The notes under the pieces: model-generated | Told to the model about the DNA's origin: nothing | What the model saw: only the letters and a program-made list of their open reading frames with translations | Databases searched by the model: none | Shown: one piece after another, positions 3,362-58,061 of the stretch | Layout: every line of letters starts with the position of its first letter | Position numbering within the stretch: the first letter of the stretch is position 1 | NCBI GenBank assembly: GCA_964016885.1 | Contig: OZ024760.1 | Coordinates: 35,030,001 to 35,094,000, forward strand | Origin: Eledone cirrhosa | Lineage: Eukaryota | DNA length: 64,000 bases | Direction of reading: 5' to 3' | Made by a program: the position numbers and the translations under genes

Positions 3362-3717
3362 TTTTTTTTCAAAGAAATTTTTTGATAATCATAAAAGTTT
3401 AAATTTTGGGCACAAGGCCCCAATCTTTTTGGGTGTCCTTTTCGGAAAACAATGTATGTGCGCTTATATATAGTTAACAATAAAATTTTTCCATAAATGG
3501 CAATTTTTAACAAACGGAAATAACAAACCTTTGCGGAGCTCACGATGATACGATTTACTACGTAGGTCGCCAATAATAATAATAATAATAATAATAATAT
3601 AGACATAGAATATTCGAAAATATTCTGTATGTTTATAATAAACATTTTGAAGACCTAATCGCTATAGAATAGAATACGTCACGTATTACAATTAGATTCT
3701 CGATAAAAGCAAGGGAA

Positions 3718-3760
3718 GTAATCTACGCGTTTCATTCTTGTTAGAAATCATCAGGACTAC
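3718..3760 (-). ncRNA. Minimal type I hammerhead ribozyme motif (H1 copy 1)
   Basis: Reverse complement reads GTAGTC-CTGATGA-T-TTCT-AACA-AGAA-T-GAAAC-GC-GTA-GATTAC. Confidence 0.8.
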
Positions 3761-4027
3761 ATATCCAGTGCTTTTATCGAGAATGACACAGCTAGAGACT
3801 TATAGAATACTTAGCTGTGTACAGGAACTGGTTTGAAAGAGCGGTTGCCGGTCCGGCAGAAATTAGAAATTGGAATAAATGCTCTGAAATAGCGATATAT
3901 ATGTGAATATAGACATAGAATATTCGAAAATATTCTGTATGTTTATAATAAACATTTTGAAGACCTAATCGCTATAGAATAGAATACGTCACGTATTACA
4001 ATTAGATTCTCGATAAAAGCAAGGGAA

Positions 4028-4070
4028 GTAATCTACGCGTTTCATTCTTGTTAGAAATCATCAGGACTAC
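4028..4070 (-). ncRNA. Minimal type I hammerhead ribozyme motif (H1 copy 2)
   Basis: Identical to copy 1, 310 bp along. Confidence 0.8.
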
Positions 4071-4337
4071 ATATCCAGTGCTTTTATCGAGAATGACACA
4101 GCTAGAGACTTATAGAATACTTAGCTGTGTACAGGAACTGGTTTGAAAGAGCGGTTGCCGGTCCGGCAGAAATTAGAAATTGGAATAAATGCTCTGAAAT
4201 AGCGATATATATGTGAATATAGACATAGAATATTCGAAAATATTCTGTATGTTTATAATAAACATTTTGAAGACCTAATCGCTATAGAATAGAATACGTC
4301 ACGTATTACAATTAGATTCTCGATAAAAGCAAGGGAA

Positions 4338-4380
4338 GTAATCTACGCGTTTCATTCTTGTTAGAAATCATCAGGACTAC
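4338..4380 (-). ncRNA. Minimal type I hammerhead ribozyme motif (H1 copy 3)
   Basis: Identical to copy 1, 620 bp along. Confidence 0.8.
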
Positions 4381-4688
4381 ATATCCAGTGCTTTTATCGA
4401 GAATGACACAGCTAGAGACTTATAGAATGCTTTTATCGAGAATCTAATTGTAATACGTGACGTATTCTATTCTATAGCGATTAGGTCTTCAAAATGTTTA
4501 TTATAAACATACAGAATATTTTCGAATATTCTATGTCTATATTCACATATATATCGCTATTTCAGAGCATTTATTCCAATTTCTAATTTCTGCCGGACCG
4601 GCAACCGCTCTTTCAAACCAGTTCCTGTACACAGCTAAGTATTCTATAAGTCTCTAGCTGTGTCATTCTCGATAAAAGCACTGGATAT

Positions 4689-4731
4689 GTAGTCCTGATG
4701 ATTTCTAACAAGAATGAAACGCGTAGATTAC
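4689..4731 (+). ncRNA. Minimal type I hammerhead ribozyme motif (H1 copy 4)
   Basis: CTGATGA at 4695-4701, GAAAC at 4716-4720, predicted GUA cleavage after 4725; outer 16-bp stem ATTCTCGATAAAAGCA/TGCTTTTATCGAGAAT. Confidence 0.8.
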
Positions 4732-4998
4732 TTCCCTTGCTTTTATCGAGAATCTAATTGTAATACGTGACGTATTCTATTCTATAGCGATTAGGTCTTC
4801 AAAATGTTTATTATAAACATACAGAATATTTTCGAATATTCTATGTCTATATTCACATATATATCGCTATTTCAGAGCATTTATTCCAATTTCTAATTTC
4901 TGCCGGACCGGCAACCGCTCTTTCAAACCAGTTCCTGTACACAGCTAAGTATTCTATAAGTCTCTAGCTGTGTCATTCTCGATAAAAGCACTGGATAT

Positions 4999-5041
4999 GT
5001 AGTCCTGATGATTTCTAACAAGAATGAAACGCGTAGATTAC
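4999..5041 (+). ncRNA. Minimal type I hammerhead ribozyme motif (H1 copy 5)
   Basis: Identical to copy 4, 310 bp along. Confidence 0.8.
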
Positions 5042-5467
5042 TTCCCTTGCTTTTATCGAGAATCTAATTGTAATACGTGACGTATTCTATTCTATAGCGA
5101 TTAGGTCTTCAAAATGTTTATTATAAACATACAGAATATTTTCGAATATTCTATGTCTATATTCACATATATATCGCTATTTCAGAGCATTTATTCCAAT
5201 TTCTAATAATAATAATGATTTCTTTATTAACCACAAGGGTTTACATAAAGTAGACATTAAGGACAGTGCAGGACAATACAGTACGGTACAAATGGGCATT
5301 TCTGCGTGTAAAAAACAAAAACAGAGGATGTAACAAAAAAATAACAATGAAAAATTCCCCAATAGGGGGGAGACTTCGGAGGGACATATGTGGAGAAAGC
5401 CCAGTAAAAGGCCACAGTGACCCTGACTACCAAGGCAAGTGCCCTCTCCCAGTTTTCCACTTTTAAT

Positions 5468-25250: not shown

Positions 25251-26029
25251 CCCCAACCCCTCCCCTCCTCTCCTCTGGCTACACTATATAGGACAGCTAA
25301 ACTTACCAACACCAGAAACTAGATACACCACCCACCCCATCATCTGTGTACACTAAACACAACAGCCAGATAACGACACATTTTCACCTTCACCTCCACC
25401 GCTCACTACGGCCATCATTACCACCACTATCCCATCACCGCCGCCACCACCCCTTGACTCCGCTACAGCACCATCACTACAGTAATACGGTCACATCACC
25501 GCCACCACTGCCTCGGTATCGACATCACCACCACCACTGTCTCAGTATCGCTAACGCCGCCAGTCTCCCACTTCCCCCTGCTGGCTGCTACTTCCACATT
25601 ATAGAATTCCTACTACTAACAAAGAGGAAGGCATCAAAATATATAGATAGACCCAAAAGAAAAAAGAAAAAACAAACAACAAAACCAAAGCAGCACAGCA
25701 ACAACAGCAAAAAACGAGAAAAACAAACAGAGAAAAACAAAAACAAAAAAAAGAAACCCCAAAAACGTAAAGAAAATAAGAATGAAGAGAGAAGCAGGCG
25801 GACGGACAGAGAAGAGGGGGGAAAAAGTAAAACTTAAAAAACTAAAACTAAGTCAGACATTCGAACACTACATTACAATGAAACTTATGCTTATTCATTT
25901 TTGGGGCCCTTTCTGCCTGTGTGTTTGTTTGTTTATGTGTGTTCGTATACAGCGTGGTGATAATGCCACACAAGGGCCAAGTGGAACGGCGAATCCACAG
26001 ATGGCTATGTAACCATACATTCGCCAATC

Positions 26030-27146
26030 CGCGTATAGGAGAAATACAAAAGATAGTACTAATGGGAACTGCCCATATACTAAGGAAGATCCTGTCAATA
26101 TAAGTACATCACAAGTCTAAACACTAAGGATGCATGTGTGAATATGTATGTTCTTTCTTGAACATGGCGGACCTTGTTGTCTCTTGAGGTCACTGGTTGT
26201 GACTTGGTGATAACTCGTATAAACATAAAGCAAGATAAATGCAAATAATAATAATAATAATAATAACTATAATAATAATAATAAAAACAAAAATGTATCT
26301 ATAAAAACATTTGAAAAATTGAGCAAGTATAAGGACCTGGAGATAGAAATTGGAAAAATGTGGAAATTGAGAACTAAAACAATACCAGTGGTTGTAGGCG
26401 CTCTGGGAATGATACCTAAGGGGTCTAACGACTACTTATCGCAAATCCCAGGAAACCCGCGTATAGGAGAAATACAAAAGATAGTACTAATGGGAACTGC
26501 CCATATACTAAGGAAGATCCTGTCAATATAAGTACATCACAAGTCTAAACACTAAGGATGCATGTGTGAATATGTATGTTCTTTCTTGAACATGGCGGAC
26601 CTTGTTGTCTCTTGAGGTCACTGGTTGTGACTTGGTGATAACTCGTATAAACATAAAGCAAGATAAATGCAAATAATAATAATAATAATAATAACTATAA
26701 TAATAATAATAAAAACAAAAATGTATCTATAAAAACATTTGAAAAATTGAGCAAGTATAAGGACCTGGAGATAGAAATTGGAAAAATGTGGAAATTGAGA
26801 ACTAAAACAATACCAGTGGTTGTAGGCGCTCTGGGAATGATACCTAAGGGGTCTAACGACTACTTATCGCAAATCCCAGGAAACCCGCGTATAGGAGAAA
26901 TACAAAAGATAGTACTAATGGGAACTGCCCATATACTAAGGAAGATCCTGTCAATATAAGTACATCACAAGTCTAAACACTAAGGATGCATGTGTGAATA
27001 TGTATGTTCTTTCTTGAACATGGCGGACCTTGTTGTCTCTTGAGGTCACTGGTTGTGACTTGGTGATAACTCGTATAAACATAAAGCAAGATAAATGCAA
27101 ATAATAATAATAATAATAATAACTATAATAATAATAATAAAAACAA
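26030..27146 (+). repeat. About 2.6 identical tandem copies (428-bp period) of the family A 3' end
   Basis: Identical ORFs at 26319 and 26747; the same interrupted tail (AAT)n-AACTAT-(AAT)n-AAAAAC in each copy. Confidence 0.9.
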
Positions 27147-27382
27147 AAACTAAGTCAGACATTCGAACACTACATTACAATGAAACTTATGCTTATTCAT
27201 TTTTGGGGCCCTTTCTGCCTGTGTGTTTGTTTGTTTATGTGTGTTCGTATACAGCGTGGTGATAATGCCACACAAGGGCCAAGTGGAACGGCGAATCCAC
27301 AGATGGCTATGTAACCATACATTCGCCAATCCTCGATAAGAGTGTTTAAATATCGAACATAAAGAGTTCGAATAACGGTGAA

Positions 27383-56991: not shown

Positions 56992-57070
<79 letters not shown>

Positions 57071-57075
<5 letters not shown>

Positions 57076-57299
57076 AGTATGTATGTATACGTACATACAT
57101 ATATGTATACAGACGTACAGTAGCATGCATATATATGTTAAGGCAACCACGTCACCTTTTTGTTCAAAGGTGACGTGGTTGCCTTAACACCGTGCGGCAT
57201 AAATTCAGGCTGTTCAGTTTATTTACAAACGAACAAAGCGGGCGCTATAATAAGCGTCCGCTAAACTGATGCGTACATATATGTATGTGTACCTGTATG

Positions 57300-57387
<88 letters not shown>

Positions 57388-57822
57388 TGCTACTGTACGT
57401 CTGTATACATATATGTATGTACGTATACATACATACTTACATTTAAGTAAGTGCCGTACTAAGAGTGAGAAATGAAATTTCGTTTTCATTTTTTTTACAA
57501 CTCATCGTTTTCGGTGCGCCTGACCGATTTAACTCACTCGATATGCAAATTAGGCTGCTCAGCCGTTAATTTTCATAAGGAAAGTATATACTTTCGAACG
57601 TTCAACTATCTGGCAGATGGGTATACGGTGCTGATGATAGCTAACAGGCTTGAAACTAGTACATCGTTCCTGTGCCAGTGTTGAACAAAAAGGTGACGTG
57701 GTTGCCTTAACACCGTGCGGCATAAATTCAGGCTGTTCAGTTTATTTACAAACGACCAAAGCGGGCGCTATAATAAGCGTCCGCTAAACTGATGCGTACA
57801 TATATGTATGTGTACCTGTATG

Positions 57823-57910
<88 letters not shown>

Positions 57911-58024
57911 TGCTACTGTACGTCTGTATACATATATGTATGTACGTATACATACATACTTACATTTAAGTAAGTGCCGTACTAAGAGTGAGAAATGAAA
58001 TTTCGTTTTCATTTTTTTTACAAC
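57071..58024. mobile_element. Hammerhead-containing 523-bp repeat element H3; short inverted arm followed by ~1.6 units, within (TA)n
   Basis: 57166-57688 is repeated at 57689-58024; 57071-57167 consists of reverse-complement pieces of the unit. Confidence 0.82.
57626..57666 (+). ncRNA. Minimal type I hammerhead ribozyme motif (H3)
   Basis: CGGTG-CTGATGA-T-AGCT-AACA-GGCT-T-GAAAC-TA-GTA-CATCG; outer stem GTTCAAC..CTGGCA/TGCCAG..GTTGAAC. Confidence 0.82.
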
Positions 58025-58061
58025 TATATATATATATATATATATACAGATTGGGGTATGT

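Follow-up and report, generated by a model that had tools for sequence, protein, structure and literature searches.

The stretch of DNA analysed in this work, referred to here as the window, comprises 64,000 nucleotides of the Eledone cirrhosa genome (assembly GCA_964016885.1, contig OZ024760.1, positions 35,030,001 to 35,094,000 of the forward strand), and it contains, from position 3596 to 5207, two divergent arrays of a 310-bp hammerhead ribozyme unit inserted in (AAT)n. We consider it probable that this locus is one insertion of an abundant and young animal retrozyme of the kind that lacks long terminal repeats (non-LTR), in which a Penelope-type enzyme copied a predicted 310-nt RNA circle from both cut ends of the target.

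The locus and its family in the genome

The two tandem arrays lie back to back and diverge from base 4428. With unit numbering that begins at the base following the GUA cleavage site, the left arm (3596 to 4428, minus strand, with a near-match to 4432) comprises 2.7 units, with its outer end at 128 (site A) and its inner end at 226, and the right arm (4428 to 5207, plus strand) comprises 2.5 units, with its inner end at 13 and its outer end at 172 (site B). Both arms fit one circular 310-nt unit with a single mismatch, at 4429, inside the inversion junction (4428 to 4432), where the exact overlap is 1 nt and four out of five nucleotides suit both arms. The inverted repeat stops at 5163, and the 44 nt beyond it (unit 129-172, positions 5164 to 5207, plus strand) form a tail present at the right outer end only. 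The left arm is preceded by an (AAT)9 remnant of the target (3572 to 3599, plus strand), whose last four nucleotides (3596-3599) also fit the element, and the right arm is followed by a T(AAT)4 remnant (5204 to 5216, plus strand), which fits it in its first four nucleotides and lies at the 3' end of a minus-strand long interspersed nuclear element (LINE). The element and its flanking (AAT)n lie between two minus-strand LINE copies. No LTR-like direct ends were seen at the element, in an inspection not aimed at a primer-binding site (PBS) or polypurine tract.

Each full unit carries one type I hammerhead core. The five cores are spaced by 310 bp, three of them directed leftward (minus strand, 3724-3754, 4034-4064 and 4344-4374) and two rightward (plus strand, 4695-4725 and 5005-5035), with the ribozyme-sense 3' ends of both arms pointing outward. 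The fourth hammerhead together with its outer stem spans 4665 to 4753 (plus strand; outer stem strands 4665-4680 and 4738-4753, stem I 4690-4694/4726-4730), and its cut is predicted after 4725. From the motif positions, cleavage would release a 310-nt monomer at 4726 to 5035 (plus strand) and two more on the minus strand, at 4343-4034 and 4033-3724. The unit has 34% GC and its longest ATG frame has 30 codons, indicating that it is non-coding. An earlier reading of the bare letters (the sequence-only reading) had described five hammerheads, three to the left and two to the right, in 310-bp non-coding units with a 16-bp outer stem and an inversion in (AAT)n, and the window bears out all of this.

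Exact pattern searches of the 3.0-Gb genome (contigs are labelled C1, C5 and C21, the window being on C21) gave 4,584 matches to the 32-nt core (2,343 + 2,241) and none to the reversed control, which rules out chance, and the pairing of end coordinates leads to an estimate of about 1,900 insertions. The outer ends fall in two clusters, site A at about 128-139 and site B at about 160-172 nt after the cleavage site, with none at the cleavage site itself, and nearly all copies are in (TA)n, which is joined to site A at 1,114 junctions genome-wide and to site B at 1,030. On contig C1, for which 100 A and 91 B ends are listed, all 54 closing pairs are A-B, and neither A-A nor B-B occurs. The first 100 core matches, which pick insertions by the ribozyme core alone, correspond to ten insertions: eight consist of a minus arm and then a plus arm, all of them A-B, one is single-armed and one is cut by a gap. 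Among the 48 loci analysed, most of which were chosen by one end (L033, L038 and the wrongly chosen, empty region L095 were left out), 45 show both arms within the fetched stretch and all of these are A-B; in L050, L096 and L106 the second arm is not in view, A ends of L050 and L106 being located beyond that stretch. Thus priming from both target strands, as the sequence-only reading had it, is supported by the two-arm A-B footprint found genome-wide, with the refinement that there are two internal priming sites, distinct from the ribozyme cut.

Units are identical at the window locus and mostly 98-100% identical across loci, and arrays reach 28 or more units. This bears out the young age that had been proposed, and the term retrozyme-like is apt for tandem hammerhead units in a dispersed multi-copy family. 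We also noted that 20 public runs under 17 organism codes contain 76-100% of the words of the unit, which may reflect horizontal spread, close kin, contamination or an RNA origin. Four contig sets from public runs have one 340-nt contig each, corresponding to one unit with no listed differences; the library type of these sets is unrecorded, so the contigs are not usable as evidence for circular RNA.

A putative Penelope-type helper

Craig et al. (10.1101/2021.04.23.441226) described as marks of Penelope-like elements (PLEs) an inverted 5'-truncated copy, a one-sided tail of 30-40 bp and a bias to microsatellites. Here, the inverted truncated copy is found in 45/48 loci and in 54/54 end pairs, the one-sided tail has 44 nt in the window and, according to where the A start truly lies, 26-36 nt in (TA)n copies, and the bias is seen in 1,030 + 1,114 (TA)n junctions. 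Moreover, Frangieh et al. 2024 (PMC11167929) reported that an anole PLE protein, when purified, cleaves ATT and elongates both strands, and that its synthesis begins at two internal positions of the RNA, one at each limit of the tail. By analogy, the two-arm A-B footprint points to a Penelope-type enzyme. The element shares with endonuclease-bearing (EN+) PLEs the inverted 5'-truncated copy, the one-sided tail, the (TA)n bias and a hammerhead upstream of the start sites (10.1101/2021.04.23.441226; PMC11167929), and it differs from them in having no open reading frame (ORF) and in arms that hold up to tens of complete identical units. As its unit has no ORF for a reverse transcriptase (RT) and a GIY-YIG endonuclease, it would behave like a PLE cargo rather than an autonomous PLE.

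An ORF-bearing element of the same genome serves as an internal control; its match to GIY-YIG is weak (Pfam E=1.4e-4, narrowly missing the cut-off). It has two fixed ends in (TA)n, seen in 9 and 12 of 30 loci (7 were unparsed and 2 other), and both ends are present together in locus L185. Four frames which we take, by their motifs, to be PLE-looking had no Pfam match, and the one compared to PDB had no match there. Kinship to the pseudo-LTRs (pLTRs) of PLEs was not found in 60 relative loci or in one PLE family.

Other hammerhead families were met in this genome. A third family (L141-L173, C1; 11,539 matches) is also two-armed with a two-end rule, its ends lying some 76 and 141 nt beyond the core. 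Its B end is like that of the 310-bp unit, each arm contains a single ribozyme, and in the loci examined no ORF was found to be linked to it. In the window itself, a second and unrelated two-armed element lies in (TA)n at 57070-58025, with a short inverted arm followed by about 1.6 units of a 523-bp repeat, which contains one type I hammerhead at 57631-57661 (stem III ACTAGT) whose core recurs in several other loci examined.

Ribozyme fold, template and rival explanations

The motif has the form CUGAUGA...GAAAC GC GUA, with stem I UAGUC/GAUUA, stem II UUCU/AGAA with a U-U at its base, and as stem III the palindrome ACGCGU, a helix of 1-2 bp. A hammerhead search had been suggested as a check: the cores were found at 310-bp spacing, and in Rfam nothing in the window reached the gathering score, the best match being Hammerhead_HH9 (19.2 bits, E=0.021), below its 52-bit cut-off. 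The label "minimal" given to these hammerheads needs correction. According to PMC4209133, a minimal hammerhead ribozyme (min-HHR) needs no helix III or loop 3, and the canonical metazoan type I form has a short helix III; because a short palindromic helix III is present, the hammerhead is of the ordinary metazoan type I and not a min-HHR by these definitions. The circular 310-nt unit folds at -67.8 kcal/mol (z=-5.3 versus 100 shuffles). A sister family with a 322-bp unit, for which 1,287 motif matches were obtained, has the same pair of ends and is identical to the 310-bp unit in 185/322 columns. It preserves stems I-III and the outer stem via compensatory changes, U3-A8 replacing C3-G8 in 33 of 37 distinct motifs, and these changes point to selection on the ribozyme fold, as judged from the sequences compared. 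The sister family (loci L061-L090, contig C1) is older; its arms mostly have 1-2 units, and its stem III is a long palindrome.

Concerning the template, 78 of the 90 arms are longer than one unit and hence cross the cleavage site, and the inner ends are spread uniformly round the unit (Rayleigh p=0.34, n=88), only 3/88 being near the cut. Both arms carry the same variants in 30/30 informative loci, where about 0.16 is expected for random draws. Across 50 loci, 21 substitutions occur at some locus in all units that cover the position, 10 of them being confined to one locus, and lone changes were rare (51 in 442 units); therefore, a frequent one-unit bottleneck is needed. Microhomology at the inner junctions has a mean of 2.5 nt in 29 insert-free junctions versus 0.76 expected (0/20,000 simulations), a mean which omits the complex junction of L041 and 15 junctions with inserts, about 3 of these 15 being parsing artefacts. 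A one-unit template copied repeatedly from both ends most simply explains these data, and the single haplotype through both arms together with the scattered microhomology junctions favours rolling reverse transcription of one circle. It is thus likely that one RNA was copied in rolling-circle fashion; this step of the sequence-only reading is favoured as an inferred one. An excess of A>G on the ribozyme strand was considered as a signal and rejected: it amounts to 7 versus 2 T>C among fixed variants (p=0.05) and to 4 versus 6 T>C among lone ones, which is too weak, and G-U tolerance would produce the same.

Some inner junctions are more elaborate. A 272-bp foreign insert is present in L037 (2599-2870), a doubled 16-nt slip in L091 (1534-1565) and a duplicated junction block in L041 (5305-5520).

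We propose that tandem transcripts would self-cleave after GUA and be ligated to the predicted circles, and that a PLE endonuclease/RT supplied in trans would cut both strands of an AT-rich microsatellite. The PLE protein would bind the A-B region, one target end being primed at A and the other at B, which would leave the tail of 26-44 nt on one side. Each RT could then travel several times round the circle with strand displacement, after which the two cDNA 3' ends would anneal by 1-5 nt and be filled in, giving the inversion. Within both start zones, the exact start could move to a point at which RNA and target end are able to pair.

It must be taken into account that several observations weigh against this scheme. 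When the 310-nt unit is folded, stem I forms and stem II has a probability of only about 0.15; in a two-unit transcript dimer stem III is near 0, even though the ACGCGU self-duplex is worth -7.5 kcal/mol, and the modelled ensemble shows no preference for the catalytic form, nor does it lend support to the dimer cleavage and the circle predicted by the sequence-only reading. Fixed variants do not spare the structure, 6/21 breaking predicted pairs versus 7.5 expected; none of the 21 falls at the 12 core positions, where fewer than one is expected anyway. Related motifs cut poorly in vitro, with one of nine Xenopus dimers being cleaved (10.64898/2026.07.22.740005), PMC4209133 reports low in vitro activity of related hammerheads, and ribozyme cleavage was dispensable for the anole PLE (PMC11167929). 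No autonomous partner sharing the unit sequence was found among 30 sister loci, 30 motif variants, the third hammerhead family and one GIY-YIG family, so that the footprint by itself carries the link to PLEs. As for the variants, in L103 the same one is present in the outer unit of both arms only, with the other allele inside. At unit position 276 of L059 (1076-5094), the four outer units of the left arm carry A and its two inner units, like the whole right arm, carry G, by a template switch or by editing during copying; the locus was tallied as shared though the variant is in 2/6 left-arm units. Variants are scattered in L037 and L106, and those of L036 repeat seven units apart, as from local duplication. 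Finally, the shared haplotypes could alternatively come from one active donor.

Part of this evidence would suit a template without any circle, namely the linear multimeric RNA of a donor array, left uncut and copied (as one molecule or as siblings) by PLE-type priming at two ends, which we hold to be rather unlikely. The outer-unit variant of L103, the scattered variants of L037 and L106 and the switch in L059 are in its favour, as are the weakness of related ribozymes in cleavage assays in vitro (10.64898/2026.07.22.740005; PMC4209133) and the unprocessed RNA reported as the main substrate of the anole PLE (PMC11167929). However, the one-unit bottleneck is required wherever a variant seen at one locus only is fixed throughout both of its arms; lone variants are rare and without an A>G excess; and copying of a single linear molecule from B should end close to site A, where (124-145) only 5/88 inner ends are found.

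Growth of the arrays in place, by unequal crossover or slippage after a PLE had inserted two-arm copies of about one unit, is considered in the Discussion of 10.64898/2026.07.22.740005. It would account for the seven-unit spacing in L036 and for arrays as long as those described above, lengths that could also be mis-assembled. Nevertheless, it has a low probability in our view: arms are usually multi-unit (78/90), with an exact 310-bp period and near-identical units; each arm would have to expand separately, a sub-unit arm having no direct repeat as a seed; and another hammerhead family, non-tandem and bound by the same rule for its two ends, remains single-copy per arm.

Insertion of the window copy by enzymes of the neighbouring LINE or R4/Dong-like elements associated with (AAT)n, or by break repair capturing RNA or DNA, is very improbable. 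The window is indeed a cluster of apurinic endonuclease (APE)-RT LINEs and of restriction-like-endonuclease elements ending in (AAT)n, and a second (AAT)n locus has similar flanks. Even so, the window copy obeys the A-B rule of the (TA)n copies, triplet-joined loci number two by the AAT patterns plus L094 versus more than 1,000 (TA)n ends, and in vitro a PLE protein has a preference for ATT (PMC11167929). An artefact of assembly or of a fold-back read, which the sequence-only reading had named among what could overturn it, is hardly credible: none of the four public contig sets spans the locus, but the sequence beside the two arms is not mirrored, the arms stop at different unit positions, and it is excluded by the recurrence across the genome of the same design with different junctions (45/48 loci and 54/54 end pairs).

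The neighbourhood of the element deserves a separate description. Window positions 1-53000 are dense in minus-strand APE-RT LINEs and plus-strand restriction-like-endonuclease elements, with (AAT)n runs between them, and these elements apparently inserted into each other's tails; those labelled R4/Dong-like we take to belong to that clade. At 26029-27149 there are 2.6 identical tandem copies of a 428-bp R4/Dong-like 3' end including its (AAT)n tail, which looks like repeated template jumping. This array sits between two copies of a stretch of about 185 bp, which also precedes an ORF at 27350.

Start register and relation to known systems

The normal target of the family is (TA)n, and (AAT)n is a rare off-target. 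In the orientation of the window locus, AAT-joined ends were found only there and at one locus on C5, besides two chance (TA)n matches; counts for triplet targets are lower bounds, as sense-orientation A ends facing (AAT)n are not included. The flanks of the two (AAT)n loci are unrelated beyond 40 bp and their inner junctions differ, and both end at 128/172, versus 139/165 in (TA)n copies. At 128 and 172 the unit matches the (AAT)n target over 4 nt, as it does at 3-5% of positions, and between unit positions 120 and 180 the only 4-nt AAT match is at 172. Locus L091 ends at 160, which is the best ATT match. In 19/31 loci a T replaces C at unit 131 in the outermost unit alone, as if the (TA)n target had paired over that position. 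A 13-bp target duplication flanks L034; within microsatellites, the window locus included, such duplications are unreadable.

The rare (AAT)n copy suggests that target DNA can shift the start of copying, and we propose that the ends are at 128/172 in (AAT)n and at 139/165 in (TA)n because the start slides to where target and RNA pair. In this tentative model, which we regard as possible though short of an even chance, two Penelope-type RTs, one per break end, would start 26-44 nt apart on one 310-nt circle, each DNA end picking its start by pairing, in the manner of telomerase. Against it, the loci are few and the numbers small, the triplet-flanked L092, L093 and L094 end at 161, 161 and 164/132 with a match of 0-1 nt, and initiation without homology to the cut DNA has been reported (PMC11167929). 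Since L092, L093 and L094 end with next to no match, the two start zones are set by the RNA, and pairing with the target likely tunes the start without being required.

Cervera and de la Pena 2020 (PMC7229834) and Li, Clavereau and Pollet 2026 (10.64898/2026.07.22.740005) described metazoan non-LTR retrozymes as tandem arrays of non-coding units, 150-450 bp long and low in GC, that each hold a type I hammerhead. A circular RNA template and a PLE helper were proposed for them, and they are recognised by at least two consecutive hammerhead units, GC below 50%, target duplications, where present, longer than 4 bp and no PBS or polypurine tract. The present element, known here from sequence alone, resembles them in its tandem hammerhead units of 310 bp, its 34% GC, its lack of coding capacity and its dispersed copies, and it resembles axolotl HHR_Amex2 in the weak palindromic helix III and the U-U at the base of helix II. 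It differs from the described retrozymes in its two divergent arrays with strict A-B ends in (TA)n. In Xenopus, 24/57 retrozyme families have a Repbase-matched pLTR homologue (10.64898/2026.07.22.740005), in contrast to the negative result above. Two-armed A-B arrays were not met in the retrozyme literature: in a term search that covered the available text apart from the supplements, PMC7229834 has neither "inverted" nor "microsatellite", and 10.64898/2026.07.22.740005 has neither "tail" nor "priming", with "inverted" only in the title of a reference. Thus the class, animal non-LTR retrozymes, is known, and the two-arm A-B footprint is new to the retrozyme literature examined. Unlike the anole PLE, which starts without homology (PMC11167929), the family has ends whose position changes with the target and which often fall at short matches to it.

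A comparison can also be made outside these groups. In L1 twin priming both cut ends prime cDNA and the inversion junction shows microhomology; the present family is unlike it in its fixed internal priming sites, in arms that overlap many times over and in the absence of poly(A).

PLE-driven reverse transcription of circular RNA in animal retrozymes has been proposed, and is not demonstrated in the text of the sources that proposed it (PMC7229834; 10.64898/2026.07.22.740005). The family offers a countable genomic footprint of this process, with strict A-B ends, one haplotype per insertion and multi-unit arms, and its 310-nt substrate with mapped start sites suits the existing in vitro PLE assay. 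If the register model is correct, the few copies in (AAT)n would amount to natural experiments in register shifting, made in vivo and to be set against homology-free initiation in vitro. Moreover, if copying from both cut ends is correct, the long-noted inverted-plus-tail structure of PLEs would be explained as the result of two-ended priming.
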